From contig JAGXSE010000009.1 in NCBI GenBank assembly GCA_018333865.1, positions 75,460-139,459 of the forward strand: DNA of 64,000 nucleotides, written 5' to 3'. This document shows, piece by piece, positions 1 through 14,870 of this stretch (its first letter is position 1; each line of letters begins with the position of its first letter). The position numbers were made by a program, and so were the translations under genes. Source of the stretch: Syntrophomonadaceae bacterium (GTDB lineage Bacteria > Bacillota > PH28-bin88). The notes below the pieces were generated by a model, which was given only the letters and a program-made list of their open reading frames with translations, was not told the DNA's origin and ran no database searches.

Positions 1-911
1 GGCAAAACCTTGCAGGGCGACAAATACTCATCTATCTCTCCGTTTTCTATTCGCGGGGGACATACCGATAAACGCTTGTTACATATGTCAGATGCTTTGA
101 TAAAGCTGGCATAACCTTTTATAGATTCGCCCAATGATTCTAATTTACCATAGTCGGGGTATTCCTGTCCGGCCAAGTATTCAATCAGGGCTTCCCCTTC
201 ATTTGCAAAAATAACGTTGCAATATTTGCCTATTGGTCCCATTGAGTCCGCCGATCCAATAAATGAATTGACAAACCCGCCTCCGATTATTATAAATGCC
301 TCTGGCTTTATTTCCTTTATTATCCTGCAAAACAAAACGGCTATTAAAAGCTGACTCTCAAAGGTTATGTTTATACCAACAAGATCACAACCTTTAAAAT
401 CATATGCCATAAGCCATTCTCTGATAAGGAGCGAAAGCTTTGAATCTAGGAACTCAGCTGCGAAATTCTCAATATCATTCCAAACATTCCAACGGTATTT
501 GCTGTCAAGTCCATCCAATCTAAAACGCAAATCGTGATAATTAAACGAATACAAGTCATAACAGGCGCGGACATAATCTATCAGCTCCCAGTATTCGCTT
601 GAAGTTTTGCATATCGACATTTTGTTAATAAGCTCATTATAACTGGTAATATCCCTGCGCAGCCTTATAAATTTTCTGCAGGCCTCTACTTCCAGTTTGC
701 TAAGGTCGGCGTTATTTGGCAGTGCTTCGTTATTACACACTTCTATAATTGCATTTTCAACGACATATTTGACAAACATGTTGTTAAAATCACACAGGTA
801 AAACTCATAATTGACACTGGAAGCAAAACCCGCCATCTGGATCGGTCCAAGCAAAGGAACGGTAGGGTCGAAATTTGGCGGTATGAAAAGATGCATTCCT
901 TTTCTACTCAT
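1..911 (-). CDS. Cobalamin-binding-domain (class B) radical SAM protein, N-terminal ~303 aa only; continues past the window start
   Basis: My own translation of the minus strand from ATG (rc of 909-911) is open to position 1. It reads MSRKGMHLFIPPNFDPTVPLLGPIQMAGF…GINITFESQLLIAVLFCRIIKEIKPEAFIIIGGGFVNS, which resembles the B12-binding domain that precedes the radical SAM core in class B enzymes. It lies 10 nt downstream of the PqqD-like gene on the same strand. Confidence 0.5.
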   Translation of the reverse strand, partial: MSRKGMHLFIPPNFDPTVPLLGPIQMAGFASSVNYEFYLCDFNNMFVKYVVENAIIEVCNNEALPNNADLSKLEVEACRKFIRLRRDITSYNELINKMSICKTSSEYWELIDYVRACYDLYSFNYHDLRFRLDGLDSKYRWNVWNDIENFAAEFLDSKLSLLIREWLMAYDFKGCDLVGINITFESQLLIAVLFCRIIKEIKPEAFIIIGGGFVNSFIGSADSMGPIGKYCNVIFANEGEALIEYLAGQEYPDYGKLESLGESIKGYASFIKASDICNKRLSVCPPRIENGEIDEYLSPCKVL

Positions 912-920
912 ATAAATACC

Positions 921-1199
921 TCAGCCGATCCGCTTGATTAAGCCAAGTTTCAGGAAGCTGTCCAGAGTTTTCATTACCAGTTTATCAATGCCCTCACTCT
1001 GACAGCTGTCTTGTATTGCCTTGATAATAACATCAACCGTATTTATTCCATTGCACAACTCCCAGACTGACATGGCGTCCTCATTCAAAGATAGGGCAGG
1101 TGTAGTTTTCGACACCACCAGCAAACCAAAATTTTCTCTTCTGGTTTTTACACCTTCAACAACACCGAATATCATATCATTGGTTATCACATTTTCCAT
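921..1199 (-). CDS. PqqD-like peptide chaperone (RiPP recognition element)
   Basis: 92 aa. The pattern …ALSLNEDAMSVWELCNGINTVDVIIKAIQ…DSFLKLGLI matches PqqD/RRE proteins. It sits between radical SAM genes in one operon. Confidence 0.6.
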   Translation of the reverse strand: MENVITNDMIFGVVEGVKTRRENFGLLVVSKTTPALSLNEDAMSVWELCNGINTVDVIIKAIQDSCQSEGIDKLVMKTLDSFLKLGLIKRIG

Positions 1200-1217
1200 A
1201 TAAAAGAGCCTCCGTAA

Positions 1218-2219
1218 CTAAAATATTGCATATGGGTCGGCACCACAAATGTCGTTTGAATAAGCATATGCAGCAGCTCTGCATCCACCGCGGCATTCTC
1301 GGAAATGACCACAGTTAATGCACTCATCCGGTACATCTGATCCCAGAACATGCTGCTTGAAAATATTTGAGTTGCGTTTTATTTCCGCAAACGGGCTGTC
1401 AAGAATATTCCCGATATTGATCCTGGACATGCCGCACATTAAAACATTTCCATTTATATCTATATAAAATCTTGAGGTGCCAAAATGACAGTATTCACAA
1501 AAAGGCTTTAGGTCATCCGGTAACGCGCAATAAGGAACTGCATTTGCCATTATGACCTTGAGATCGGGGTACTGGTCGATTTTATGTTTAACTGTACTTA
1601 ACGCTGAAATCAGCTGTTGATGAGATAGTGCCAAATATGCATTATCTTTGCCGATACCTGTAGGAGTAAAGCGGGTAAGGGTAATTTCCCGCAGCCCGTT
1701 CGCATATAAAAACTCAATAAAATCACCAACGAAGCTAGAATTTTTACTTGTTAATACAAAGTTAGACGCTATTCTTACACCATTTCCCAACAGAAGCTTT
1801 AATGCGGAAAATGCCAAATCATAGCTACCGCCTACACAAGTCAATTCATCATGTATATGTGACGGACCATGAAGAGATATGTTTGCACCGTAAATACCAC
1901 ATTTTTTGAAAATTTTCACTGTATCATTGGTGATTAATGTACCGTTAGTTTGCACCATTGTCTTCGAGAATAAATTACAGCATTTCTCGATAATAGCGTT
2001 GATTTGAGGGTGTAATAAAGGCTCTCCGCCTGTTAGAACAATCTCCAGCACATCGCTTTGGGCTAATTTGTCGATTATTTCAAATGCCCTGTGGGTAACT
2101 AAAGGATTTTGGCTGTTGTAGCAAAAACGACAGAAAAGATTACACTGTTCCGTTAATTCGAGTTCCACCCTCATAGGGTTCATTTTTATATTTAGATCAA
2201 GCAGCTTATCTTTGTCCAT
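1218..2219 (-). CDS. Radical SAM enzyme with a SPASM-type C-terminal Cys cluster (sacti/ranthipeptide-synthase-like maturase 2)
   Basis: N-terminal CNLFCRFCYN (CxxxCxxC). C-terminal Cys-rich tail …CEYCHFGTSRF…CGMSRINIG…CINCGHFRECRGGC. It is a paralogue of the upstream gene. Confidence 0.85.
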   Translation of the reverse strand: MDKDKLLDLNIKMNPMRVELELTEQCNLFCRFCYNSQNPLVTHRAFEIIDKLAQSDVLEIVLTGGEPLLHPQINAIIEKCCNLFSKTMVQTNGTLITNDTVKIFKKCGIYGANISLHGPSHIHDELTCVGGSYDLAFSALKLLLGNGVRIASNFVLTSKNSSFVGDFIEFLYANGLREITLTRFTPTGIGKDNAYLALSHQQLISALSTVKHKIDQYPDLKVIMANAVPYCALPDDLKPFCEYCHFGTSRFYIDINGNVLMCGMSRINIGNILDSPFAEIKRNSNIFKQHVLGSDVPDECINCGHFRECRGGCRAAAYAYSNDICGADPYAIF

Positions 2220-2222
2220 AAG

Positions 2223-3236
2223 CTATTTCCCCCACTTCCTTGTGGAAATGGTTTCTCCACAAGCGTTTATCGACTCGTCATATACTACGCAGCCGCCTTT
2301 ACACCTGGGAAATTCTTCGCAGCTTCTGCAAGGAACAGGGATATGGCATAACGCTTCGTATTTTTTCCATCCGGGCGCATTCCATATATCATCAAAAGAA
2401 TGAATATTCAAGTCGCCAATTATATCATCCGATATGGTACAAGGTGTGACTTTTCCTGTAGGGCTGATCCTGCATAAACCATAGCCGTATTGACATGGTA
2501 TATTCAATATCCTCAATTTGCTGTGGTATTCGCTATCTATTTCACAATAAGGTACCGGTCCGGGTAAACTGACATCGCTTATTGCAGAGAAATCTTCTTT
2601 TACCTGCAAAAGCAGGTCTATGAGTTTCATGGTCGCTTTGGAATCAAGTAAAAGGCCTTTGTTGTTACTATTATTCAAAATATACCGGGTTGAGCACAAA
2701 GAATAGCAATCCAAACCAGCAGCCAATTTGCCGATGTTGTAAATATCTTCAAAATTTTCAGTTGAAGTGCATACATTAACCTCGACTTTTATTCCATTAT
2801 GTCTTAAGATTTTTATTCCATTTATCACATCGTCATAAGCACCAACTCTTCCCGTCATCTTATCGTGTTTCGATTTGTCGGAATGTAGTATTGACGTACA
2901 AACACTTTTCATGTATCTGGCTATAATTTTCGCTATTTGATCTGTTATTAAAGTGGCATTCGTATTCATGTGCAAATCAAATCCCAAAGTGCCGGCATAT
3001 TCAAGAATATTCTGAAAATCGGACCGCACCAACGGTTCACCGCCGTTAAAGTTAATTCTGAATACGCCGATTCCGCATAATTGATCCAATATTTGTTTGA
3101 TTTTTACAAGGCTCAACTCATTTCCATTGACATGCCCCATGGGATTATAACAAAAATAGCATCTATTATTGCATCGTTCGGTTATCTCAAATTGTACATA
3201 AAATGGAGCTTTACTCCGATTTATCCTTTCAATCAT
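2223..3236 (-). CDS. Radical SAM enzyme with a SPASM-type C-terminal Cys cluster (maturase 1)
   Basis: N-terminal CNNRCYFCYN. C-terminal …CQYGYGLCRISPTGKVTPC…CHIPVPCRSCEEFPRCKGGC. A 3-nt gap separates it from the next gene. Confidence 0.85.
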   Translation of the reverse strand: MIERINRSKAPFYVQFEITERCNNRCYFCYNPMGHVNGNELSLVKIKQILDQLCGIGVFRINFNGGEPLVRSDFQNILEYAGTLGFDLHMNTNATLITDQIAKIIARYMKSVCTSILHSDKSKHDKMTGRVGAYDDVINGIKILRHNGIKVEVNVCTSTENFEDIYNIGKLAAGLDCYSLCSTRYILNNSNNKGLLLDSKATMKLIDLLLQVKEDFSAISDVSLPGPVPYCEIDSEYHSKLRILNIPCQYGYGLCRISPTGKVTPCTISDDIIGDLNIHSFDDIWNAPGWKKYEALCHIPVPCRSCEEFPRCKGGCVVYDESINACGETISTRKWGK

Positions 3237-3305
3237 GCAAATTCTCCTTTAGTCAATTTGCGCAATGAGAGCAGTTGATTTATAAATAACGGGAGCAGTA
3301 TTATA

Positions 3306-3452
3306 TCACTTGCATGCGCTGCAAGCAGTACACGCAGTACAAGCACAACAGGCGTCCATGTCCCTAATATCGAAGACAACCTCGCTCTCGCTTGAAAAAG
3401 GAACTTTGAACGGGTCAAACACTTCTATCTTTGGAGAAAACTCTTTCTTCAT
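3306..3452 (-). CDS. Candidate RiPP precursor peptide of 48 aa: MKKEFSPKIEVFDPFKVPFSSESEVVFDIRDMDACCACTACTACSACK
   Basis: It is the first gene of the rSAM operon. A strong RBS (AAAGGAGGTGA) lies 5 nt before an internal ATG of the 70-aa ORF in the track. The C-terminal 14 residues carry six Cys, five of them at a strict 3-residue period. Confidence 0.55.
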   Translation of the reverse strand: MKKEFSPKIEVFDPFKVPFSSESEVVFDIRDMDACCACTACTACSACK

Positions 3453-3810
3453 GCCACTCACCTCCTTTAGTCCTAAAATTAAATTTACTGCTCTCATGCT
3501 GCAAACTCTCCCCCTCATTTGCTCCCTTAAAAAGCGTTGAAATACTGGTAAATACTATATTTGTTAAGGTTCAGATAGGAGGAACTTAGCTCCCTTATTT
3601 ATATCTAATTATATGTCAATTTTTTTCATGCTTGTCAATATAAACCAAATTATAAAATTATACTCTTATGATATATTACTTTGAAGCTATCAATTTCTTT
3701 ATGTATACCCGTACTCATAAAATATAAATGTGGTTCAAAGCTACTGAAAACTTGTGAAAGGTAAAAAAGAAACTGTAACAGAACTTTTATTCCATTACAG
3801 CCTCTTTCAT

Positions 3811-3888
3811 TGGAGCCCTCATCCGGAATCGAACCGGAGAAAACTCTTCCTTACCATGGAAGCGCTCTACCTACTGAGCTATGAGGGC
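3811..3888 (-). tRNA. tRNA-Thr (anticodon GGU) with 3' CCA encoded
   Basis: The reverse complement GCCCTCATAGCTCAGTAGGTAGAGCGCTTCCATGGTAAGGAAG…TCCGGTTCGATTCCGGATGAGGGCTCCA folds as a cloverleaf. The anticodon loop is AUGGUAA. The variable region is somewhat long at 7 nt. Confidence 0.65.
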
Positions 3889-4141
3889 ATACTAAGTTTG
3901 TTATAGCCGTATTGTTGCCGTTTATTGGCAGATTTAAGCACCGCTCTTTCATTACGATCCTTTTTCAACTTACATATCCATACTTCAAAAGCTTCGGGAT
4001 TGTTTTTCCCGTTTTTAATAGCAAAATTTTTTAACGCTTCCACTCTGCCGGTCAGTAGCAGTGCCTGAAATAAAACAGGCTGGATGTAAAGCCTATATAG
4101 GTGGGAATGAATTCTCTTATATTCATAATTGATTTTTCCTA

Positions 4142-6206
4142 TTATTTTTCTATGCTTTTTATAAGCTCATTTGCAATATTAGGACTTTCAAGACTCATGA
4201 TGCTTTCCTCTGCACTACCGAAGCTTAATAGATTTATACTCCCATACCATACAATCCTTTGATCTATAACTGCAAATTTTTGGTGTATGTTTGATTTAAA
4301 AACTATACTTACTCCCGCACCTTTCAGGATATCCAATGTCTCTCGCAAAGTTGTCATCTCCTTGCCATTGAAATCATCAGCCGGTCTGGTCACTACAATT
4401 ATTTTCACCTTATTTCCTAAAGCAACCTCCAGGTTTTGCATCATTTGTAAACTACGCTTTCTAGTAACAAACGGACTTACTATCAAAATCTCTCTTGCAG
4501 CATTCACTATGTCATTAGAATATACCGGCAAAAAGTTGCTTTTATCAAAAATAATGTCTATCGACTCTGTTGTAATACTTTCACCTTTTGCTTTATAGCC
4601 AATTGCGGCATATCCGGTAAGTCGCTTATTATACATTTTCTCCAGCATTCTTACATGGATATCTACATAATCGTAGATTTGCACTTCACTTTTTCCTTCA
4701 AATAACCTGTGAAGCCTCCCTGCATATTGCTGCAAGGTTCCTTTCCATGATATAGGCATAGCTAAAAATAAGGTGTCAAGCCTTGGTTCATCAAAGCCCT
4801 CTCCTATATATTTACCTGTCGCCACTAAAGTCAATGGCTTGTCAATCGCAATTGGTTTTATCTATCCAGCAAACTTCTATTCCCAGTCCTTCAAATACAG
4901 CTTTCAAATCTGCTTCACATCCTCTTGGCAGACATAAGTATTCTGCTGTCTCTTCAGCACATGAAATGATTCTGGGTTTATCAAAGGTCGGCATGCGCAT
5001 GGCTTGGGCTTTATAAAATTCAGGGTTTTTGAAAGCCGCCAAACGCTTCAAATGATTTAATGCCCTTTGGGAAATACTGAGTTTCGGTATAAATAACATA
5101 TTGGCTTTTACAATTTCAATACACTGCGGGAAATCATCTTTTAACAGTTTAATCCTGCTTGTTTCCCATGGCTTTTGTGCTTCTTCTTCATCTTTTTTCA
5201 GCACTCCAAGTTCATTTCCCTGGCATAATTTTGATATGAGTATCTCTATGTCATCTTCAGGAAGCTTCTGGATTGAGGCTAAAAATGCCCATTGATCATC
5301 GAATGGTTGAAAATGTTCATCTATAAAAACGCTGTTATTATCTTTTCTTGCAGCTTTTTGCAGCGGCAAAGCAATTAAATGGCCCAAGCCGCCTTTCGGC
5401 ATGGTATCCTGATTAGGAAAAAACCTGTCATATGACTTGAAAGTAATCTCATGCCGTTTGCTCATGGCATAGGTAAGCAATGCACTTCCGAATTTCCTTG
5501 CCAAAGAAGCGGCTATAGGACTTTCAAAGAAAAACCACATATGGGCTCCATTGCCTGACCGTGACCGTTCAACTGTAATAGGAATTTTAAACTCCGAACA
5601 CACCTCCCTCAATGTCGTGACGTCCTTTTGCCACTCTCCATCGTCAAAATCAATGGCTAAAAAATAACAGGTCTCATCAAGGTACATCGGATATATTCCT
5701 GCAATAAATTTATCTTGGCCGCGAAAATCGTTACTACGAAGATCTTTACCACGAAGATGAGCATCAATTACCTTTTCATCTAAAACAAGATAGTCTTTAT
5801 GCTTGCAGTCCGCACATTTAGTTTTTGACTTTTGACAGATACCCGGCTTCCATTCGTTGGCACATGCGGGAGCATATCCGGAAGTCCCTTTCTTACTGTT
5901 CTCCCATCTCTCGGCATAAACATCATCCCGACCTCTAAAGAGTGACATAAACAACTTGATCTTTTCTACAGAATCTGACCCGTTATTAACGGATGGATCT
6001 AAAACTTGAGCAGAATGGTTCTGTTCTGATATTTCCGGCTCAGGTTTATGTTCAAAAATATCATCAGGATTACCCTGTGATTCTTCGATACCGAGTTGAG
6101 CTTTCAAGCTTTTTATTTCTTCTCTTTGGTTTTTTATTTCCTCTCTCAAGTTTTTGTTCTCAGTCAGCAGCGTCTGATACTTTTCAAATAGCTCTTTAAA
6201 ATCCAT
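4142..6206 (-). pseudogene. Disrupted gene: AEP primase-polymerase-like N-terminus + SF2 helicase C-terminal domain + PLD/HKD nuclease, with a frameshift around 4835-4844
   Basis: Two adjacent ORFs in different frames are separated by 7 nt. The upstream ORF has the motifs LAIDFDD and SRSGNGAHMWFFF and ends in the start of a helicase-C domain. The downstream ORF continues …TLVATGKYIGEGFDEPRLDTLFLA…QYAGRLHR (helicase motif VI) and carries an HKD motif (HQKFAVIDQRIVWYGSINL). No Walker A/DExH N-domain was seen. Confidence 0.5.
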
Positions 6207-6312
6207 GTCTTTCCCCTGTATGCAATCAATTTATAATCGTTGCAAGATTAATTCTGCAACAATTGTTTGATTCGTTTATTTTTATTCGTATCATTTATTC
6301 GTATCAAAATGT

Positions 6313-8007
6313 TTATGAGTCGTTAAATTCAAGGTAATAATATGAAGATCGCCCTTTTTGAGCCAATTTTATACCATGAATTTCAAGCTCATGCATCATT
6401 CTTACAACCTGAAGCTTTGTAAGTCCGGTAAATTGCCTTATTTCTTCATTTGTAAGGTTACGTTCCTTCAACAATGTGAGAATACGAATTTTCATGGACT
6501 CTTTGTCGAGCCTCTTGTCCCGGTCATACTCCGTATCACGCTCAAGCAGAGCATATACTGATGCCTTTAAAGTATAGTACTTTCCTTTTGAGGCACCACC
6601 TGACTGTAAAAGCCCAAGCTGGTTTTCCATATTGTTCAACAATTCCCGGGCTTGTTCAATGCTTCTCTGGCATATGTTTGAAGCCTCTAAAGAAGTGATC
6701 TCTCTATGCCTCAGCAAATAATTCAATATAATAAGATGATCTACATCCAATAAAACACCATCATCAGCCATCTTCTTAACAAACCGCCTGAATGCCGGAA
6801 CAAGTGTAGATGCCAGCATCGTCAGTTCAATTGATTCACCAACCTGCCTATACTGCGGCGGTTCCTTGCCTTCAATAAGTAAAGCCTTATAAATTCTTGG
6901 CACTCCAAGGTTTGATCTGTTGACCAACCTCAATTTATCAAGCAAATCTGCCAAATGCGCATTTCTTGTAACCGGCTGATGATGAAGAATGTTCTCTGAA
7001 GTAATTCCACCAATAAAAGTACCCGGATTTGTGAGAATCAGTTTGTCAGGATAATGCTTCAACATAACTGCACTTGGAATTCTGTAATCCCTATGCATAA
7101 AAGCATTCAATAGTGCCTCGCGTAATGCTATCTTTGGATACTTGCTAAACTCAGGATGCACAAAACCAACTTCTATCGTGGTGGAAGGATTGTCAACCGC
7201 CATATACCTTTCCATTTCATATAACGCAATGGGTATTGCATGAACTCCATCATCCTTAATGGAATAATCCGTAGTTCTGAGCATCTTCCGGAATGACCAA
7301 TAATGATTCGGAATATATCTGGCAATTGCATCGTTTGTTCCGGTGAGAAGAAGTCCTCCAAAGGTGAGTCTGCCGTTTTTAATTGCTCCTACGGAAGAAA
7401 GCAAATCCTCATCAGACATTGAAGCTAATGTATCCGGAGCTCTTTCTTCAGTCATCATCATGCGGATTCTTTCCATGGCAACAGCGGAAAAAAGCTCTTT
7501 CCAGTGCATATCAGTCAGATTTGCAGTAAAATCCGCTGTTCCGCTCTGCTCCATTAGGTCTTTCCTCACAGAACCGGTCAACGGCTTACAATCCTTTCCA
7601 ACTCTTATAGTAGCGCTACCATCGGTCTCGGTATATGGTGGCATTCCGGGGAAAATACGCATTACAAGTATTTTACCTGTTCCTTCAGGAACGGTTATCC
7701 ATTCAAAATTAGCTGTAATGTGGGGCTCGGTTCTATCATAAATGGTCTTTTGAAGCATAACAGCATCCACATAAAGGGGCACTCCCTTTATTGCACCATT
7801 TCTACCCCTGACTTTATCTCTGACACCAAAAATTACTACTCCCCCACCGCCGTTTGACATGCACACAGCCATTTTAACAGCCAGATTCTCAGCATCATTG
7901 TTGCTTCTTTCATTCCATTCCTTAAAGTCCAGTTCCTGTCCTTCAAGGTCATCTGCTATATATGTATTCAGTTGCTCCAACAGGGTTAGGATTTCACTTG
8001 TTTTCAT
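6313..8007 (-). CDS. AlbA_2/Schlafen-like ATPase with a C-terminal winged-HTH (COG2865-type putative transcriptional regulator)
   Basis: 564 aa. The N-terminal divergent AAA/AlbA_2-like region contains …GGGGVVIFGVRDKV…. The C-terminal region resembles an HTH (…RNLTNEEIRQFTGLTKLQVVRMMHELE…). Confidence 0.65.
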   Translation of the reverse strand: MKTSEILTLLEQLNTYIADDLEGQELDFKEWNERSNNDAENLAVKMAVCMSNGGGGVVIFGVRDKVRGRNGAIKGVPLYVDAVMLQKTIYDRTEPHITANFEWITVPEGTGKILVMRIFPGMPPYTETDGSATIRVGKDCKPLTGSVRKDLMEQSGTADFTANLTDMHWKELFSAVAMERIRMMMTEERAPDTLASMSDEDLLSSVGAIKNGRLTFGGLLLTGTNDAIARYIPNHYWSFRKMLRTTDYSIKDDGVHAIPIALYEMERYMAVDNPSTTIEVGFVHPEFSKYPKIALREALLNAFMHRDYRIPSAVMLKHYPDKLILTNPGTFIGGITSENILHHQPVTRNAHLADLLDKLRLVNRSNLGVPRIYKALLIEGKEPPQYRQVGESIELTMLASTLVPAFRRFVKKMADDGVLLDVDHLIILNYLLRHREITSLEASNICQRSIEQARELLNNMENQLGLLQSGGASKGKYYTLKASVYALLERDTEYDRDKRLDKESMKIRILTLLKERNLTNEEIRQFTGLTKLQVVRMMHELEIHGIKLAQKGRSSYYYLEFNDS

Positions 8008-8036
8008 TGTAATACCTCATTTCTGCCATTCACAAA

Positions 8037-8429
8037 TTACTGAGCATGTTTCAATTTCATAATTGCTTGCCTTATCGCTTCACTTTCCGAAATATTATTT
8101 GTCTGACAATAATTATTCAATATTTCTACAATTTCCTCGTCCATCCGTATTGTAATCCTTTTTTCTTTAACAGTCTCTTTCTTTGGCCTTCCCTTTGCTA
8201 ATGGTTTTCTTCTGTACTGTTTTTTGTCAGACAGATATTCAATAATCAAGATTCTATCTCGCTCATAAAATTTCTTATTTTTAACAATCAACTCTTCCCA
8301 AAGCATCTTTGCCTTTTCTGCTGTCTCAGCCCATTCTTTTTGGTATTGTTCCTTTTCCTTGCTATTCTTAGACTTTGCTATCTGCTTTAACATTAAAGTC
8401 TGCAAATCCTTATAAGTTTCACACTTCAT
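8037..8429 (-). CDS. Ribbon-helix-helix (CopG-like) domain protein
   Basis: 130 aa, Lys/Glu-rich. The C-terminal stretch RITIRMDEEIVEILNNYCQTNNISESEAIRQAIMKL is typical of RHH DNA-binding proteins. Confidence 0.4.
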   Translation of the reverse strand: MKCETYKDLQTLMLKQIAKSKNSKEKEQYQKEWAETAEKAKMLWEELIVKNKKFYERDRILIIEYLSDKKQYRRKPLAKGRPKKETVKEKRITIRMDEEIVEILNNYCQTNNISESEAIRQAIMKLKHAQ

Positions 8430-8562
8430 ATCAGTAGCGTTGCATAAAACCTACCTACCAAAATTCTAGTGCAAGGATGCAAATACCATTATTATAATTT
8501 ATTACATTATTGGTGTATACACCCAAGTAGCTTTCTGGCCGCTGTGTAAAGGGACTAACCAC

Positions 8563-9893
8563 TTAACGGGTAGTCCTCATCCACATTTTGCCACATATGT
8601 GCTTGGTTACAGTATTACTGGGTCGTAGGACAGATAATTTAGAAGACCTGTCTCGCCTGCTACCACCTGCCTCACGGTTAGTTGATAAATTCCCTCATGA
8701 TCTATCCTTCGTCGGCCTCTTGAGCTTCGTTGGGGCGTCCGATAAAGCTTTTGGACGAAGGACGTGAACGGGTCGCAGAGGCAGGTGTGGATCAGCCTTT
8801 TAATTGTCAGTAAGGACCCCTTGTAGCCCACTTTCAGTTTTATCAGCATCAGCAGGCAGTAGGTGATGAGCGCTATGAATATCTGGTTTTCCACCGCTTG
8901 CTCGCTTGTCCCATAAAAGTGTTTTACGCGAAGGTGCTGTTTAATCCATTTGAAGAAGAGTTCGATTTGCCAGCGGTAGCGGTAGATGGTGCTTATTTCT
9001 TCGGCTGTTAGCTTAAAGTCGTTGGTGATGATGATTACCGGATTGCCTTGGGTATCCTCGGTTTCCGCCAGCCGTAAAGAGTATTTCATTTTGTTGACGC
9101 CTTCTTTACCCAGGTAAACGATTTGGTGTTTCTTAATGGGGCCATCGGGATCTACTGGAAGCTCTGCAACGACTTCAATTATCGCATTACCCTTTAAACG
9201 GGTAATAAATCTGATGCCTTTTTCGCAGTACTTATCAAACTTATTGTAGTCCACGTATCCCCGGTCAAAGACGTTTAAAGCATCTTCTTCCTCAACCACT
9301 AGGGTATCCATCTGGGTTTTGTCAGCAGGCTTGGTAGGGGTAATTACAACTTCATCAGGAAAAACCCCTTGCTCAAAAAATCTAAGCCCCAGATGTATCT
9401 TGATACCGCCTTTGGTCTTTCTAAATTTAGCCCAAAGGAACTGGGAAAGACACAGGCTAATGGTCGTGGAATCAATTAGGCGAAGACGTCCTAATTCTTG
9501 GCTAACGGTATCAAACCCAATTTCTTTTCCGGCTTGAGTTTTTACGTCATTAAACAGCAACTGGAGAACTTCTGTTGGCAGTTCCCTTAGTTTGCGGGAA
9601 ATCTGGGAAGCGCTGATGGATTTAAGAGCAATTGCTTCGCTAATCTTATCGTCACTGAGACTATAGCTGATGTCCCGTAAACCGCGTAGCTGTTCGATTT
9701 GAGCATTGGCTACAAGTTCAATGAGTTGTATGGTGTATAATTTTTTAGCGTATCTATCAACCCCCATTTCTTCTACTTGCTGCCGAAATTTTTCACTGGA
9801 AACTGGCCCAAAGAATTGATGAAATGTGGATATTGTGGTATCCTTGCCTTGCATAATTATCTCCCTTATTTTAGAGATTTGAGCAAGGACTAC
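8563..9893 (-). mobile_element. Complete IS4-family insertion sequence with ~11-14 bp terminal inverted repeats (…AGGACTACCC / GGGTAGTCCT…)
   Basis: Inverted repeats at 8567-8580 and 9877-9892 flank the transposase ORF. Confidence 0.5.
8607..9854 (-). CDS. IS4-family DDE transposase
   Basis: 415 aa with …TIYRYRWQIELFFKWIKQHL…, a signature of IS4/IS1634-group transposases. Confidence 0.85.
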   Translation of the reverse strand: MQGKDTTISTFHQFFGPVSSEKFRQQVEEMGVDRYAKKLYTIQLIELVANAQIEQLRGLRDISYSLSDDKISEAIALKSISASQISRKLRELPTEVLQLLFNDVKTQAGKEIGFDTVSQELGRLRLIDSTTISLCLSQFLWAKFRKTKGGIKIHLGLRFFEQGVFPDEVVITPTKPADKTQMDTLVVEEEDALNVFDRGYVDYNKFDKYCEKGIRFITRLKGNAIIEVVAELPVDPDGPIKKHQIVYLGKEGVNKMKYSLRLAETEDTQGNPVIIITNDFKLTAEEISTIYRYRWQIELFFKWIKQHLRVKHFYGTSEQAVENQIFIALITYCLLMLIKLKVGYKGSLLTIKRLIHTCLCDPFTSFVQKLYRTPQRSSRGRRRIDHEGIYQLTVRQVVAGETGLLNYLSYDPVIL

Positions 9894-9959
9894 CCTCTAT
9901 CTCTATTATAAGGGATTTTTCTTGCAAAAGCACGGTCTTTCCACTATTTTCATGGGATT

Positions 9960-10619
9960 TTGACGGTTGACAAATTGGTTTTTTGTTATTGCAACGTTAG
10001 TGTCGATGAATACACAAAAGAAAGCATCATCGACAAAGAGACCGGCGAGATTCTGAAAAACACGAAAATATTGCGCAGTGTGGATTTGGAAAAGGCGGAG
10101 AAAGACGCGATGTATGACGGCTATTTTTGCATCATTACCAGCGAACTTGACTATGATGAGCGAAAAATTCGCCAGGTGTACGGCGGCCTATGGCGGATCG
10201 AGCAGTCGTTTAGGATTATGAAGTCAGACCTTTATGCCAGACCTGTGTTTGTCAATAAAAATGAGCATATCCGTGCACATTTCCTGATTTGCTTTGCTAG
10301 CCTCCTTATCATCCGAATCATTCAGCATCGTATGGGAGAAAAGGCGTTGTCAGCTGAGCGGATCGCAAGAGCGCTTAATGCCGCAACATGTCAGGTTTTG
10401 AAAGGCGGCATCATTCATCTCGATATTGTCGGTGGCGCGATTGCATTCCAAAAGGTACTACACAAAAAAGGCGAGATTGTGGACACGCTGGCATATTCGG
10501 ATAAAGACGAAATTGCACTAGACTACAAGGTAATACAGGATATGTTCAGCACGGATTTCAACAATATTTATTCAAGGCAGGAGGTGTTCAACAAATTCCC
10601 AAAGAAGATATCTCTGTAG
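9960..10619 (+). pseudogene. IS1634/IS4-group transposase, C-terminal fragment (N-terminus missing)
   Basis: 219 aa with …YGGLWRIEQSFRIMKSDLYARPVFVNKNEHIRAHFLICF…, the conserved C-terminal block of IS1634-type transposases. There is no catalytic N-terminal part. It lies 67 bp from the IS4-family element. Confidence 0.6.
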
Positions 10620-10656
10620 CATAACAAAATTCAAATACGATCCTTGAATGAATGCG

Positions 10657-10722
10657 AGGGTTCCCGGAAAGAGAAAGGGTCCTAATCTCCAACCTAATTC
10701 AGCATGGTGTCCTTTTAATTCT
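10657..10722. repeat. ~66-bp repeat copy A (AGGGTTCCCGGAAAGAGAAAGGGTCCTAATCTCCAACCTAATTCAGCATGGTGTCCTTTTAATTC)
   Basis: Near-identical direct copy at 13772-13837. A partial copy lies at 14847-14870. Confidence 0.8.
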
Positions 10723-10762
10723 CCTCAACTTTAATTCCGCTTTTTCCCTGCCAAATCGTGTC

Positions 10763-11326
10763 TCATTTCTTGGTTCCATTATAAAGTGCCGGAGTAAGTG
10801 CGTGAATACAAGATTCAGAGATTTTGGCAAGCTGCTCCCATGACAAACTAAGTGTTGTTCGTTCGGGCTCCGGTGTTCTGCTACGCGTGTTCTGATCGAA
10901 AAATAGAAACACGTCCTCATTTATGTCTACTTTTCCATGACTGAGCGCATTGCGAAGTAATTTGAGGACATCTTTCCAATAATAGAGATTGCGGTTACCT
11001 TGGATCTGTTCGGGCGAGGGGAATTTCACGCCGTAGCGTTCAGTTACCTTGGGGAACTCTTCGAGTAGCTCATGCTCCAAGCCCGCCAGTTTAGCGGACT
11101 CCCAAAGCCACACGAGACATACGTAGGCAAATTGCAGAAAGGTACCTTGATGTAATAATGAGGGCATGACTTTAAATCCGTTGGCACTCGCCTCATAAGT
11201 GACCAACGCATTAATCTCTTTGCCTTTATCTTGCTGGAGAGCGGCCAGCAGGCGGACATTGAATAGGGACAGCTTCGCAATGTGGTAGCGCTCACGCGCT
11301 AAGTCAATATTGGAAATCATCACCAT
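10763..11326 (-). CDS. Hypothetical protein with a HEPN-like Rx4HG motif (LRNALSHG)
   Basis: 187 aa. The HEPN call rests only on the single motif. Confidence 0.4.
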   Translation of the reverse strand: MVMISNIDLARERYHIAKLSLFNVRLLAALQQDKGKEINALVTYEASANGFKVMPSLLHQGTFLQFAYVCLVWLWESAKLAGLEHELLEEFPKVTERYGVKFPSPEQIQGNRNLYYWKDVLKLLRNALSHGKVDINEDVFLFFDQNTRSRTPEPERTTLSLSWEQLAKISESCIHALTPALYNGTKK

Positions 11327-11480
11327 TCCTCCTTGTTTGTCTACTGCTTAGTGACAGCTGCTCAACGCTGACCGTTACATGCTGTTGTTGGGCCGTCACT
11401 ATCTTCTTAATACTGACCAGTTCCCAGCCGAACGATGACGGAGAGTATCCCAAGACCGGCTTCTTTCGGTTCACGGTTTT

Positions 11481-12515
11481 CTACATCGATTCGAATGTTG
11501 TCATTGCTACCCGTGTGCGTGAACACACCCAACGTTTTATCAAGTTCTCCGTTTCGCCGCCAACGCGCCGGACCACTGCCTGCAGGGCAGTCTGGAGGAT
11601 ACGCTCTGAGCGAGCGCCTAGGTTAGCACCAACGCGACATACTTCGCCTAAGCGTAGCCCCGTCCAGCACTGAACGAACTCGGCTAGACCAATGCATGTC
11701 AAGACACTTTCAACAGATGCTTCCGTTAATCCACCAAGGATTGTTGCTCTGCTCAACTGGCGATGTCGTCGGCAGTGGCATGGAAACCCATGCATCGACA
11801 GCACGTGACAGTCTGGGCAGCGGTCTGGGTCGAACCACCCGCAACCTTCGAGGTAGTGTAAGGAGTTACGCGAGCCTGCATTTTCGCTCAGGATAGCGGG
11901 AACAAGCTCCTTTGCGGAAAGGGATTTCCGGCCGCCCAATACTAGGGTGAGCACCCGTGCACTCACAATGATGAACTCCCCTGGAGGCGAGAGTAGGCAG
12001 TAGGCCCCCAGCATGCCTGAGCAGTTCCGGAAATGAACCTTGTTAAACCCTTTGAAGACACCAGAAACACCGGTAAACTCAGGAAAGCTCGTCAACATTG
12101 CAAGCTGCCCAAGATCGACTTCATACCTGGCTGCATCCCGTCCCGTGCTCCTGCCTTGTCGCTTGGCTTGAATTAGACACGCCCTCTGAAACACGGGCTG
12201 CCCATCGTGGACATACGTACCCAGCACAAAGAGGTCGGCGAGCTCCCGCTGATATTCGGTCTTACCGACTTGAAACTTTACCTGTGATTTGGAACCGTGC
12301 AGGAAAGCTGCCTCCACCTCTAACTTCAAGAACATCCCTTTGTTAAGCTTCACTTCGACTGATTGCATGTTGTGTATGGCTTGCACAATCGCCTGCACGC
12401 ACCCCACTTCGCCCTGCTGGGTGCCATATGCGTCTTCCAGCCCGCAACGAATTTGTGTAATGAGATCCCACTGCCAGTCTTGAACAACGGACGCTTGTAA
12501 GAATTTGTCAAGCAT
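11481..12515 (-). CDS. Hypothetical protein of 344 aa with no recognisable domain, GC-rich
   Basis: Long ORF with composition distinct from the AT-rich neighbours. It is co-directional with the MNT/HEPN pair upstream and the HEPN-like gene downstream. Confidence 0.5.
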   Translation of the reverse strand: MLDKFLQASVVQDWQWDLITQIRCGLEDAYGTQQGEVGCVQAIVQAIHNMQSVEVKLNKGMFLKLEVEAAFLHGSKSQVKFQVGKTEYQRELADLFVLGTYVHDGQPVFQRACLIQAKRQGRSTGRDAARYEVDLGQLAMLTSFPEFTGVSGVFKGFNKVHFRNCSGMLGAYCLLSPPGEFIIVSARVLTLVLGGRKSLSAKELVPAILSENAGSRNSLHYLEGCGWFDPDRCPDCHVLSMHGFPCHCRRHRQLSRATILGGLTEASVESVLTCIGLAEFVQCWTGLRLGEVCRVGANLGARSERILQTALQAVVRRVGGETENLIKRWVCSRTRVAMTTFESM

Positions 12516-12581
12516 TGCCAGAGTGACCTCCTGGGTATTTCATTCCAACTTGCGAAGATATTCCGGATTTAAGGGACTGTT

Positions 12582-12955
12582 TCATTTGTTCATCAAAGAC
12601 CTGATAGCCTTCAAAAAACTCTCCGCAGCAAGGATAGCCCGCTCCGTTTGTGGCTTGGATACGTGTGCCGTGCCCCCATAATCCCCAACATTTCGTATTT
12701 CAAAAAGCCAGTTTAAATCCTTGCCATGTTCCTTGTTTAATTTCCCCGTCTTAACGAATCTTTGATGGATCGAAGCAATGACTCCGCTATGCTTGCTGAA
12801 ATCCAAACCCTCGTTCAGCAAAACGGCTATGGCTGCATAATACGCACGCGATGCCGCAAAATCGTGGTAACCTTTAACAGCCAAGTCTTTAGCCACTTGG
12901 ATAGACTGCCCGGCTCGTTCCAGGTTGGCGGCAATTTCCTGCTCTAGTTCCGGCG

Positions 12956-12959
<4 letters not shown>
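12582..12959 (-). CDS. HEPN-domain protein, putative toxin partner of the MNT gene
   Basis: 125 aa. It overlaps the upstream nucleotidyltransferase gene by 4 nt. The motif region is EIRNVGDYGGTAH. Confidence 0.55.
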
Positions 12960-13273
<314 letters not shown>

Positions 13274-13309
13274 TCGAACACCACCCCCGCTATAGTTATT
13301 CTACAGGAA

Positions 13310-13843
13310 TTGGAGATTATTTGTAAAGTGAGTAGTTTGGGAATTTTTTCTTGGGTGGGGGGGGCGATTTGGGAGGAATATGGGGGACACCATACTAAAT
13401 TATTGCTTACGCATGACAATAGTCATATAATATCAGAGGCACTGGCAGCTGCTATAGGGGAAGCTCACCGCCGCTATACGCTGGAAGTAAACTTCCTTGA
13501 AGGTTGGAGCGGGCACCTTTGGCAGGGGCGCTTTTCCACTTATCCCATGGATGAATACCATCTTTATGCCTGTGCCCGTTATGTGGAACTTAATCCTGTA
13601 CGGGCGGGATTGGTTAGCAAAGCATGGCAATACCGTTGGAGCAGCGCTGCTGCTCATGTGGAGGGCCGGGACGATATCTTGTTGAAGGCCGGGCCGCTAT
13701 TGGAGATGATTGGCGACTGGCGAGAATATCTCTCCAAAGAGAGTTCGGATAAGGAAATTGCAGCCTTTGAAAGGGTTCCCGGAAAGAGAAAGGATCCTAA
13801 TCTCCAACCTAATTCAGCATGGTATCCCTTTAATTCCCTTTAA
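13310..13843 (+). pseudogene. RayT/IS200-like (Y1, COG1943) transposase remnant: N-terminus missing and HuH motif degenerate
   Basis: …GHLWQGRFSTYPMDEYHLYACARYVELNPVRAGLVSKAWQYRWSS… parallels the E. coli RayT block IWQPRFWEH…YIYINPVKHGWV…WPFSTF. The 3' end of the ORF runs into repeat copy B. Confidence 0.45.
13772..13837. repeat. ~66-bp repeat copy B, a direct repeat of 10657-10722
   Basis: 63/66 identical to copy A, followed by a terminator-like hairpin GGCCTCGCAAAGCCCGCGAGGCC-TTTATTTT at 13903-13940. Confidence 0.8.
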
Positions 13844-13946
13844 TTCAATAAAATAACGGCGGGAGACTTGACAGCCCCGCCATTCAATAACCGTCCTTAA
13901 ATATATCCAAAAGGCCTCGCAAAGCCCGCGAGGCCTTTATTTTCAA

Positions 13947-13995
13947 TGGAGCCCATAACCGAGATTGAACCGGTGACCTCCGCATTACCAAGGCG
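13947..13995 (-). other. Orphan 3' half (49 nt) of tRNA-Thr, an att-like direct repeat of 16119-16167
   Basis: TGGAGCCCATAACCGAGATTGAACCGGTGACCTCCGCATTACCAAGGCG has 47/49 identity to the 3' portion of the intact tRNA-Thr 2.1 kb away in the same orientation. Confidence 0.6.
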
Positions 13996-14041
13996 AAAAA
14001 TTCCATGTTTATCTGGAGTAAAGAAAAAGTGACCTGCGCCA

Positions 14042-14281
14042 CTATAGATACTTGTCAATGTATTCCTTCATCTCCAGTACAGTATTGAATTTTAATGACG
14101 AAGCTATAATTTTGGCGGTACCTGTGGCTACAGGGTCTTTGTCTTTGTGATAGTCAAACTTACATGTACGCCAAATACCGTCTCTGCCTATTCCTAAATA
14201 TATAGTTGAACCCTTTTCAGGTTTCATATTGAAATGTGAAAGAAGTTTACGTATATCTCCCTGGCAGAATCGTACAGGCAT
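14042..14281 (-). CDS. hicA: HicA-like mRNA interferase toxin
   Basis: 79 aa, …KGSTIYLGIGRDG…HKDKDPVATGTAKIIASSL…. It lies 2 nt downstream of the HicB-like gene. Confidence 0.45.
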   Translation of the reverse strand: MPVRFCQGDIRKLLSHFNMKPEKGSTIYLGIGRDGIWRTCKFDYHKDKDPVATGTAKIIASSLKFNTVLEMKEYIDKYL

Positions 14282-14283
14282 TT

Positions 14284-14763
14284 TTATAAACCCAACACTT
14301 TCTTTATAGCATCCCTATCCCCATGACATCTAAGAAGTTTAAGCAAAAATAATTGCTTTTGCTCAGACTCAACTTTTGAAAACATATCTAGTTTCTCAAC
14401 ATAAATAACAAGAAATTCCAGAACGCTATCAAGCAGATTATTAATAGCAGCTTCTAATGTAGTGCCGTCACCATAAAGGTCAATTTCCGGAAGAGATACA
14501 GTATGAATTCCAATTTCTTCATCAAACTCTATTTCAGGTGTAAAAATTAAATTGGAAAAAAGCCTGTCGAGGTAAGATGTTTTAATATGTGATACCATTT
14601 CGTTCTCATTATTTGCATTGAATGTTATTACTTCGATTCCTTTTAGTGCGATATTGTTAAGTTCAGAATAGTACTTCTTTGTATCTCGAATATTGAACTT
14701 TGGTATTGTTAATGACATTTTATTGACACCCTTTCTAGGTTCCATCATAATCCTCACTTTCAA
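14284..14763 (-). CDS. hicB: HicB-like antitoxin
   Basis: IGIHTVSLPEIDLYGDGTTLEAAINNLLDSVLEF fits the HicB N-domain pattern. Confidence 0.45.
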   Translation of the reverse strand: MKVRIMMEPRKGVNKMSLTIPKFNIRDTKKYYSELNNIALKGIEVITFNANNENEMVSHIKTSYLDRLFSNLIFTPEIEFDEEIGIHTVSLPEIDLYGDGTTLEAAINNLLDSVLEFLVIYVEKLDMFSKVESEQKQLFLLKLLRCHGDRDAIKKVLGL

Positions 14764-14846
14764 GTTTAATATAAATAGTTATCGTGGTCAAGGTGGTCAC
14801 CGTGGTCACGGTAATTTATTGTATTATATGTTAAAGAGCATAAAAT

Positions 14847-14870
14847 AATTCATGGTGTCCCTTTAATTCC
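14847..14870. repeat. Partial copy C of the ~66-bp repeat (AATTCATGGTGTCCCTTTAATTCC)
   Basis: Matches the 3' 24 nt of copies A and B. It sits at the 3' end of the Fic gene. Confidence 0.5.

Follow-up and report, generated by a model that had tools for sequence, protein, structure and literature searches.

Among peptides that are made by the ribosome and modified after translation (RiPPs), those matured by radical S-adenosylmethionine (SAM) enzymes are a main source of new peptide chemistry. Described systems of this kind include the sactipeptide and ranthipeptide clusters (AlbA, SkfB, CteB/SCIFF, PapB/freyrasin and NxxcB), which have been reviewed in PMC10114670 and PMC8172795, with PapB also treated in PMC9413430. 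UvrA-like proteins encoded in biosynthetic gene clusters (Ecm16, DrrC and MtrX) give self-resistance to DNA binders (PMC9328131, PMC10192343, PMC10413001). Here we analyse a stretch of 64,000 nucleotides from a Syntrophomonadaceae bacterium (contig JAGXSE010000009.1; hereafter the window), whose positions 1 to 3452 probably contain the 5' half of an operon of nine genes that is mobile, serves to mature a ribosomal peptide and belongs to a previously undescribed radical-SAM RiPP family.

The locus resembles the sactipeptide and ranthipeptide clusters in its precursor with periodic cysteines, in its maturases that combine radical SAM and SPASM domains, in its PqqD-type RiPP recognition element (RRE) and in its anaerobic Firmicutes host. 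Unlike those clusters, the cysteines recur here with a period of three and have an invariant alanine partner, an arrangement that is not Cx3D, NxxC or SCIFF, and the RRE is a separate protein. The usual exporter or protease is missing, while three SPASM-type enzymes are present together with a B12-type radical SAM enzyme, a methyltransferase, a UvrA-like ATPase and an M19 hydrolase. The locus probably represents a radical-SAM RiPP cluster of a new family or a new variant; its logic is that of the known radical-SAM RiPPs and is not categorically new.

A nine-gene cassette with conserved order

The genes of the cassette follow one another as A (precursor peptide), B and C (radical SAM/SPASM enzymes), D (PqqD-like protein), E (a radical SAM enzyme of 680 aa), F, G, H and I (Table 1). 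The window ends inside gene E and so holds only the 5' half, but the full operon from A to I is seen in the public copy of the source contig (locus L001). An exact match to the gene C protein was found on 17 public contigs, the longest one read being 195 kb. The first-pass annotation of the window had reported five co-directional genes on the minus strand, and both the open reading frames (ORFs) and the domain scans agree with this. The spacing of 3-107 nt given there is to be corrected, since the gaps from A to E measure 69, 3, 18 and 9 nt. Further along the operon in L001, G and H overlap by 4 nt and H and I by 8 nt, and convergent unrelated genes lie 3' of I.

Look-ups and tblastn with the nine proteins revealed genes A to I in identical order in seven further loci (L009, L010, L013, L014, L098, L099 and L100). 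The carriers are Clostridium sp. 19966, the termite-gut spirochaete Pillotina sp., two Lachnospiraceae metagenome-assembled genomes (MAGs) and other metagenome contigs; among these carriers, Clostridium sp. 19966 is the one named genome of isolate type. Because the flanks of the cassette are unrelated in every locus, the unit of inheritance spans exactly the region from the peptide gene to the M19 gene. A scan of 185,579 species-representative genomes contributed at least two close loci, both in Lachnospiraceae MAGs, and a metagenome scan with the peptide profile contributed at least three. Identity to the window's proteins is higher for the peptide (77-83%) than for any of the enzymes (35-74%; by locus comparison in Table 1), which makes the peptide the most conserved product of the cassette. 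The family of E comprises about 60 clusters and is set apart from its nearest relatives by a drop in score from 426 to 280 bits. The short-UvrA family of G comprises about 75 clusters, with a drop from 397 to 319 bits down to the canonical UvrA of 940 aa. For about 30 clusters the 'longest contig' value is shared between the two lists, as would be expected if the two genes were co-located.

The presence of a leader/core peptide, an RRE, maturases, tailoring enzymes and a hydrolase in one operon is in all likelihood the architecture of a RiPP pathway, and a short leader/core precursor beside modifying enzymes is what is generally expected of one. No curated NCBIfam family fits the locus and the cassette recurs in the same order elsewhere, in line with the candidate new RiPP family proposed at first. 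Recurrence of the gene set in at least seven other loci goes well beyond what chance would give. Neither NCBIfam release 20, Pfam, PADLOC nor the searchable literature contains the precursor type, the enzyme subfamilies or the combination of four radical SAM enzymes with a minimal UvrA and an M19 enzyme. A protease or an exporter had been considered possible beyond position 1 of the window. The first of these was found in part, as gene I encodes an enzyme of the M19 peptidase family, the sole peptidase-family protein of the cassette. The exporter was not, because none of the cassette products in L001 has a membrane-spanning profile.

Guanine-plus-cytosine (GC) content across the cassette in L001 is 0.36-0.39, inside a wider island of 0.36-0.44 that begins at about position 1000, and it jumps to 0.55 right after gene I. 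Correspondingly, positions 1-8000 of the window, described earlier as AT-rich, have a GC content of 0.39 as against about 0.50 at 16-64 kb. Overall, the cassette of this host occupies an island of 0.37-0.42 GC in a genome of ~0.50. The sharp edges of this low-GC island, together with the patchy spread of the cassette across phyla, make its horizontal acquisition well supported. Such an acquisition had been proposed from AT-richness and from the adjoining tRNA-Thr. The first argument stands, whereas the adjacency to the tRNA is a trait of this host only, since the other loci have other flanks; for the same reason we rejected the tRNA-Thr as a part of the cassette. In L099, genes for an IS21-type IstB and a Mu-like transposase are situated directly 3' of the cassette (L099:10351-12671), which fits with mobility of the cassette.

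An additional gene, X, encodes a protein of 266-277 aa that is about 50% identical between loci. It is optional, being present in about half of the cassettes and absent from this window. Gene X lies directly 3' of the peptide gene, except in L098, where it lies directly 5' of it. Its product has no match in Pfam, NCBIfam, PADLOC or the PDB sequences, and motifs resembling those of nucleotidyl cyclases, suspected in it by eye, are given no weight here.

The precursor peptide

Gene A encodes a peptide of 48 aa, MKKEFSPKIEVFDPFKVPFSSESEVVFDIRDMDACCACTACTACSACK. Its leader (approximately residues 1-33) carries the motif F5-x-P7-x-h-E10-h-F12-D-P-F15-x-x-P18-F19. The core, DACCACTACTACSACK, reads as (Ala-Cys-x)5 and contains six cysteines within 15 residues. 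Among the homologues aligned, the core DACCACTAC(S/T)ACSACK is almost invariant, with the exception of the last residue after the final Cys, which is variable (K/R/G).

A search of 1.84 billion cluster representatives gave 39 proteins that matched the peptide profile. At 90% identity the homologous peptides form 28 clusters, all of them unnamed or annotated as 'hypothetical', from Clostridium sp. 19966, Pillotina sp., a Spirochaetaceae MAG and many metagenomes. Distant relatives keep the leader motif and have repeats of (A-C-x)3-7, as in the cores AACCACTACTACR, ACSACSACK, PCTACSVCSACG, CAPCTACSACVACNACVACR and ACSACSACSACCCACTACGTGH. Throughout these relatives the Cys of each repeat and the Ala preceding it are invariant or nearly so, and the third position is occupied by C, T, S, V, N or P. 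In the numbering of the window's peptide, A34, A37, A40, C35, C38 and C41 are invariant or nearly so even in the distant relatives.

At the DNA level all 16 of the 16 core codon columns vary among eight loci, including switches between AGY and TCN serine codons, and a single T/S replacement results from this variation. Gene A is therefore translated and under strong purifying selection. The strong ribosome-binding site pointed out for this gene in the first-pass annotation is indeed in place, as AAGGAGG (Table 1); a Shine-Dalgarno sequence of the AGGAGG type is also found 5' of the peptide gene in seven other loci, and the peptide itself is kept in the homologous clusters, a point on which the candidate had been expected to stand or fall.

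Our results also agree with the suggestion that the peptide is neither SCIFF nor freyrasin, as both the peptide and the enzymes stay below the cutoffs of all NCBIfam models. The peptide has no real match in NCBIfam or Pfam. The NCBIfam scan at E<=0.1 gave only the spurious phage_P10, with no match to the SCIFF peptide model, and the core strings were not found in the searchable literature. The ACGX-repeat system likewise has a short repeat peptide containing Ala-Cys. Unlike that system, the repeat here is three residues long (A-C-x) and not four, and the peptide is without an NCBIfam match. For ACGX, the searchable literature gave only unrelated papers.

Gene callers extend the peptide gene of this host to a product of 63-70 aa from upstream starts (window 3306-3518), and in L099:345-856 two wrong-frame ORFs have been called in place of the 48-aa ORF, which ends at 696. 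Frequent mis-calling of this kind helps to explain why the family has gone unnoticed. A second 48-aa ORF located downstream in L013 was considered and is not a copy of the peptide. In L094:629-2417, the next ORF after a distant precursor with the core CAPCTACSACVACNACVACR encodes 82 aa, and behind it comes a homologue of gene B (50% identity), which suggests a variant gene order in remote relatives.

Radical SAM/SPASM enzymes B and C and the stand-alone RRE

The products of B and C both match Pfam Radical_SAM (E=4.9e-24 and E=2.1e-20, respectively) and the SPASM profile PF13186 above its gathering score (29.4 bits as compared to 21.5 for B, and 28.0 bits for C). In each of them the CX3CX2C motif (C22x3C26x2C29 in B and C26x3C30x2C33 in C) is accompanied by the complete SPASM set of cysteines, with a CX2CX5CX3C motif near the C-terminus (C303-x2-C306-x5-C312-x3-C316 and C300-x2-C303-x5-C309-x3-C313). 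The motif cysteines of both enzymes are invariant in eight orthologues. The two had been described earlier as paralogous SPASM enzymes, and while the domain assignment holds for both, their mutual identity is only 27%.

Since B and C begin directly with the radical SAM motif, they contain no fused RRE, which fits with D being shared between them as a stand-alone protein. The product of D scores 25.6 bits against PF05402 (gathering score 23.4), as expected for the PqqD-like recognition element that it had been taken for, and it is kept in all loci. We presume that D is the RRE serving B and C.

Solved relatives of B and C are PqqE, SkfB, SuiB, CteB and anSME. By sequence, the best PDB match of B is PqqE (66 bits), followed by SkfB, and those of C are SkfB (61.5 bits), PqqE, SuiB and anSME. 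The last of these matches is weak (28 bits) and restricted to the C-terminal part of C, and it is the one observation which would favour regarding the radical SAM enzymes as anSME or other housekeeping SPASM enzymes next to a spurious small ORF. This is almost certainly wrong: there is no sulfatase in any locus examined, a neighbour for which the first-pass annotation had proposed to look, and the peptide ORF is conserved, preceded by a strong Shine-Dalgarno sequence and under purifying selection. The absent sulfatase and the selected peptide ORF together refute it.

Among NCBIfam models, the best relatives of B and C are SPASM enzymes that modify peptides or tetrapyrroles (NirJ2, PqqE, AhbD, MftC, GeoRSP, StsB, SkfB, DynA and PapB), all with scores that are fractions of the cutoffs. 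The SkfB, AlbA, StsB and PapB models are matched with E values of 1e-17 to 1e-27, a likeness to the sactipeptide and ranthipeptide clusters. The scores nevertheless reach no characterised thioether-forming family: AlbA gives 64-65 bits against a cutoff of 850, SkfB 68-80 (79.8 at most) against 300, StsB 87-94 (93.5 at most) against 625, and PapB 77 (76.6) against 340.

The systems for pyrroloquinoline quinone (PQQ; PqqA/D/E) and mycofactocin (MftA/B/C) resemble the cassette in that a small peptide is encoded along with a separate chaperone of the PqqD family and a SPASM radical SAM enzyme, and in lacking an exporter. They differ from it in that PqqE is matched with 111 bits against a cutoff of 381 and MftC with 105-107 against 265, and D stays below the cutoffs of PqqD and MftB. 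Furthermore, the core here is a Cys repeat and not Glu/Tyr or Val-Tyr, and no cofactor-using enzymes are linked to the cassette. The SynChlorMet, GeoRSP and ACGX cassettes have been defined in silico in TIGRFAMs/NCBIfam, and SynChlorMet (ScmE/F) similarly combines two PqqE-like SPASM enzymes with a PqqD homologue. The scores against ScmE (93.7 bits), ScmF (68-70), GeoRSP (119) and rSAM_ACGX (57-58), each to be compared with 400 bits, set the enzymes of the cassette apart from these systems.

Radical SAM enzymes E and H

Only residues 1-303 of E, which form a Rossmann-like domain, are encoded in the window; the radical SAM motif (C311) lies outside it. The first-pass annotation had proposed a cobalamin-binding radical SAM enzyme at the window edge. 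The full protein of 680 aa does contain a radical SAM core (PF04055, E=3.8e-14) and has a fold like that of the B12-type enzymes, although the part inside the window gives only a sub-threshold match for B12 binding. In the AlphaFold2 model (mean predicted local distance difference test, pLDDT, 91.6) the Rossmann domain carries a helical insertion of about 130 aa, and an extra beta/alpha domain is present at the C-terminus. The top Foldseek matches of this model are MgmA, OxsB, TsrM, AprD4 and TokK, and several members of the E family match the B12-binding profile PF02310. The modelled fold thus points to E as a putative cobalamin-binding B12-type radical SAM enzyme.

By its modelled fold, E shares the N-terminal Rossmann-like domain followed by a radical SAM barrel with the B12-dependent radical SAM peptide C-methyltransferases (TIGR03975; the PoyC and TbtI type) and with solved B12-type enzymes such as MgmA, TsrM, OxsB and TokK. 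In contrast to these, E has the motif CX4CX2C (CYWGKCKFC) in place of the canonical CX3CX2C, the Rossmann insertion and the additional C-terminal domain, and it forms a tight family of its own. All members of the family have the CX4CX2C motif, as do the more distant B12-type relatives P0089 and P0095. Against TIGR03975 (rSAM_ocin_1), E scores 48.2 bits, far below the curated cutoff of 281.85. The C-terminal domain (model residues ~570-645) has the element order beta-beta-beta-alpha-alpha-alpha, which is RRE-like, and a Pfam PqqD domain is present in some of the distant homologues. We do not assign a fused RRE at this position, as hhalign against the PqqD proteins of the cassette was negative (probability 0.3%).

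Gene H encodes the third SPASM-type enzyme of the cassette (PF13186, 46.9 bits), with a CX3CX2C motif, a CX12GX4C element and a truncated CX2CC ending. Its best NCBIfam matches are a tungsten-cofactor oxidoreductase maturase (101 bits) and a 'putative metalloenzyme maturase' (96 bits). These matches, together with the six cysteines in 15 residues of the core, are what would be expected if the peptide bound a metal or metallocluster, as a metallophore or a cluster scaffold, and if the radical SAM enzymes were maturases of the metallocofactor type. We regard this as very improbable, because the two scores lie far under their cutoffs of 380 and 400 bits, the cassette has no metal transporter or receptor, and the invariant Ala beside every Cys would be left unexplained.

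UvrA-like ATPase G and M19 hydrolase I

The product of gene G is a double ABC ATPase whose best NCBIfam match, by far, is UvrA (TIGR00630, 366 bits). Alignment to 2r6f places its residues 1-47 at the start of UvrA and residues 182-570 along the C-terminal half, with residues 48-181 replacing about 480 aa of UvrA that comprise most of signature domain I and the UvrB-binding and insertion domains. Across 61 sequences there is no variation in Walker A1, Walker B1 (D158-E159), H191, Walker A2, LSGGE or the zinc finger C376/C379/C398/C401. The model of G (pLDDT 88.8) superposes best on the engineered T. maritima UvrA d117-399 (TM-score 0.84) and also on 3ux8. Of the copies looked up, the one in L099 (P0245) had been sampled most widely, with its product indexed in 133 collection blocks.

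G also matches Ecm16 (7sh1), with 219 bits by sequence and a TM-score of 0.77-0.79. Like Ecm16, DrrC and MtrX, it is a UvrA-derived tandem ABC ATPase that is without the UvrB-binding domain, keeps the Zn3 finger and is encoded inside a biosynthetic operon. In contrast to those proteins, G is only 570 aa long as against ~760-810, is in addition devoid of the insertion domain and of most of signature domain I, and has a degenerate ATP site 2. It occurs in a RiPP cassette of anaerobic Firmicutes and Spirochaetes and not in an actinomycete polyketide synthase/nonribosomal peptide synthetase (PKS/NRPS) cluster. The searchable literature contains no description of a minimal UvrA within a RiPP operon. 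By analogy with the self-resistance proteins, an interaction of the product or of the pathway with DNA is possible, though doubtful; we take this as a lead and not as a finding.

Gene I scores 87.9 bits against PF01244 (gathering score 26) and thereby belongs to the M19 family, of which renal dipeptidase and the gliotoxin dipeptidase GliJ are members. Its nearest solved relatives are GliJ and the amidohydrolase 2i5g. The binuclear-metal ligand positions are kept (H8, H10, E71, D129, H132, H153 and D233). Unlike other members of the family, I has HxH and not HxD as the first metal motif, and its alignment to the profile is confined to the C-terminal two-thirds. Enzymes of the M19 family are dipeptidases that cleave Cys-Xaa bonds. 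We found no M19 enzyme linked to a RiPP pathway in the searchable literature.

The dipeptidase character of the M19 family and the GliJ match of I bear on a different view of the cassette, in which the peptide would be consumed as the scaffold of a small molecule or cofactor that stays inside the cell, similar to PQQ or mycofactocin. The Ala-Cys-x units would then be modified by the radical SAM enzymes and methyltransferases and cut out by the M19 enzyme, so that several copies of a small compound containing sulfur arise from each precursor. Such a role would suit a core that is a tandem repeat with a copy number of 3-7 and that is invariant across phyla, as is typical of cofactor precursors and not of bacteriocins. 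The PqqE and MftC matches of B and C, the stand-alone PqqD and the lack of an exporter in the cassette also speak for it. However, the rare and patchy spread on low-GC islands beside transposases is ill-suited to a core cofactor, the neighbourhood of the cassette contains no conserved partner dehydrogenase or cofactor-dependent enzyme, and it is not obvious what a UvrA-like DNA-binding ATPase would do in the synthesis of a cofactor. We therefore consider the scaffold role improbable and prefer a RiPP pathway whose product is the modified peptide.

A proposed maturation pathway

In the proposed RiPP pathway, D would bind the leader motif F-x-P-x-h-E-h-F-D-P-F-x-x-P-F and hand the core to B and C. 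These two enzymes would abstract hydrogen, and the sulfur of each invariant Cys would be joined to a carbon of the neighbouring Ala (or of the x residue), giving rise to a ladder of small thioether rings. E might C-methylate an unactivated carbon, F might add an S-, N- or O-methyl group, and H might carry out another radical step. Trimming of the peptide would be left to I, which could, for example, take off the variable last residue (K/R/G) after the final Cys. G would protect the DNA of the producer, or act on it otherwise, and by analogy with Ecm16 and DrrC this would imply a DNA-directed product.

For the linkage made by B and C, thioether ladders appear the most likely choice because of what is known about SPASM peptide maturases (PMC10114670, PMC8172795, PMC9413430) and because of the invariant pairing of Ala and Cys. 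Thioether chemistry by these two enzymes is still a tentative assignment.

Several points weigh against the proposal or against parts of it. Every one of the chemical steps is an inference, and no product has been seen. SPASM enzymes are also known to form C-C and C-O links, to epimerise and to decarboxylate. For B and C, the non-thioether models NirJ2, PqqE, AhbD and MftC score like the sactisynthases. Cobalamin binding by E is suggested by its fold only, its own match to PF02310 (13 bits as against 32.1) being sub-threshold. ATP site 2 of G is without the Walker B Glu and the H-loop His. Moreover, a short UvrA-like homologue of 580 aa that is 42% identical to G (P0258, L101:10001-11743) lies outside any cassette, between ribosomal protein L31 and a MazG-like gene in a Clostridia MAG, so that G need not be an immunity protein. 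The absence of an exporter and of a classical leader peptidase from the cassette is odd for a secreted antimicrobial, and an invariant core is atypical for bacteriocins.

Around one 15-residue core, in which every third residue is a Cys preceded by an Ala, the cassette gathers four radical SAM enzymes, a methyltransferase and a metallohydrolase. As the enzymes lie outside every curated family, new cross-link or methylation chemistry is likely. The substrate of 48 aa makes this chemistry directly testable and the cassette a compact and tractable target. Invariance of the core across Firmicutes and Spirochaetes, which is unusual for bacteriocins, implies a tightly constrained structure or target. 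If G is an immunity protein, resistance-guided mining for DNA-targeting agents would extend from the PKS/NRPS clusters of actinomycetes to RiPPs made by anaerobes of guts and digesters, and G, which consists of the nucleotide-binding domain core and zinc finger only, would serve as a natural minimal model of UvrA. In the most far-reaching case, which we think unlikely, the product would be the first radical-SAM-derived ribosomal peptide acting on DNA: a compact and methylated Ala-Cys ladder with thioether rings of the radical 'lanthionine-like' or sactionine type, with a naturally minimised UvrA protecting the producer and the M19 enzyme as a new RiPP-tailoring peptidase.

Genomic neighbourhood

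The features of the window and of the related loci are collected in Table 1. A candidate promoter for the operon is located about 200 nt upstream of gene A. Since promoter-like sites are no more numerous in this region than in shuffled sequence, the site is to be read as a consensus match only.

Table 1. Coordinates of the cassette genes and neighbouring features (window positions unless a locus is named) and identity of the cassette products to the window's proteins.
Feature	Position	Strand	Length	Identity	Remarks
Gene A, precursor peptide	3452..3306 (incl. stop)	minus	48 aa	77-81%	ATG at 3452, TGA at 3308-3306
Shine-Dalgarno AAGGAGG of gene A	3467..3461	minus			8 nt 5' of ATG
Gene B, radical SAM/SPASM (rSAM-1)	3236..2223	minus	337 aa	64-74%	
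Gene C, radical SAM/SPASM (rSAM-2)	2219..1218	minus	333 aa	51-60%	
Gene D, stand-alone PqqD-like protein	1199..921	minus	92 aa	34-48%	
Gene E, B12-type radical SAM, window part	911..1	minus	residues 1-303 of 680	42-57%	continues past window edge
Gene E, whole	L001:11309-13351		680 aa		
Gene F, class I SAM methyltransferase	outside window		254 aa	43-51%	
Gene G, minimal UvrA-like double ABC ATPase	outside window		570 aa	45-55%	
Gene H, radical SAM with SPASM match	outside window		317 aa	46-59%	
Gene I, Peptidase_M19 protein	outside window		295 aa	35-43%	
Gene X	L010:6453-7286				
Gene X	L013:691-1491				
Gene X	L098:3446-4201				
Gene X	L099:814-1614				
Gene X	L096:280-1041				
Candidate operon promoter TTCAAA-17-TATAAT	3685..3657	minus			10/12 consensus matches
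tRNA-Thr(GGT)	3811..3888	minus			followed by terminator-like hairpin
Schlafen/AlbA_2-HATPase_c_4 protein	6313-8007				
Ribbon-helix-helix (RHH) protein	8037-8429				
DDE_Tnp_1 transposase	8607-9854				
Transposase fragment	9960-10619				
Fic protein	14863-15921				

The surroundings of the cassette in this host raise the question of an anti-phage or conflict system, in which a peptide or metabolite made by the radical SAM enzymes would hit invading DNA and the UvrA-like protein would be the sensor or effector. Here the cassette lies beside TOTE (AEP-TOTE, PLD), a Schlafen/AlbA_2 ATPase, an RHH protein and an insertion sequence element; AbiEii adjoins it in L012 and a SNF2-type helicase of 1388 aa in L010. 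The lack of an exporter would be in keeping with such a role, as would the matches of the radical SAM cores to the PADLOC prokaryotic viperin models, which are at the domain level only. Yet no system of PADLOC-DB 2.0 is matched, the hits being confined to generic domains, namely the viperin radical SAM core and, from mad2/mad3, the methyltransferase and ABC domains. Housekeeping genes or transposases flank the cassette in Clostridium sp. 19966 and in L099, and a leader/core peptide with an RRE is the signature of RiPP biosynthesis. An anti-phage function is hence quite improbable, and RiPP biosynthesis is the reading that we retain for the cassette.

The TOTE conflict-system gene of this host (window 4142-6206, minus strand) itself seems to be broken. 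A 454-aa AEP-TOTE primase ORF (PF22548, E=7e-102) is followed by a gap of 7 nt that contains its stop, and then by an ORF of 230 aa. As judged by eye, the latter begins partway through a helicase C-terminal motif and has a PLD nuclease domain at its end, and the helicase core seems to be missing. The low-GC stretch runs on through window 6313-15921 with mobile and defence-type genes, and housekeeping genes, for example that of cysteinyl-tRNA synthetase (19172-20626), resume after the Fic gene.

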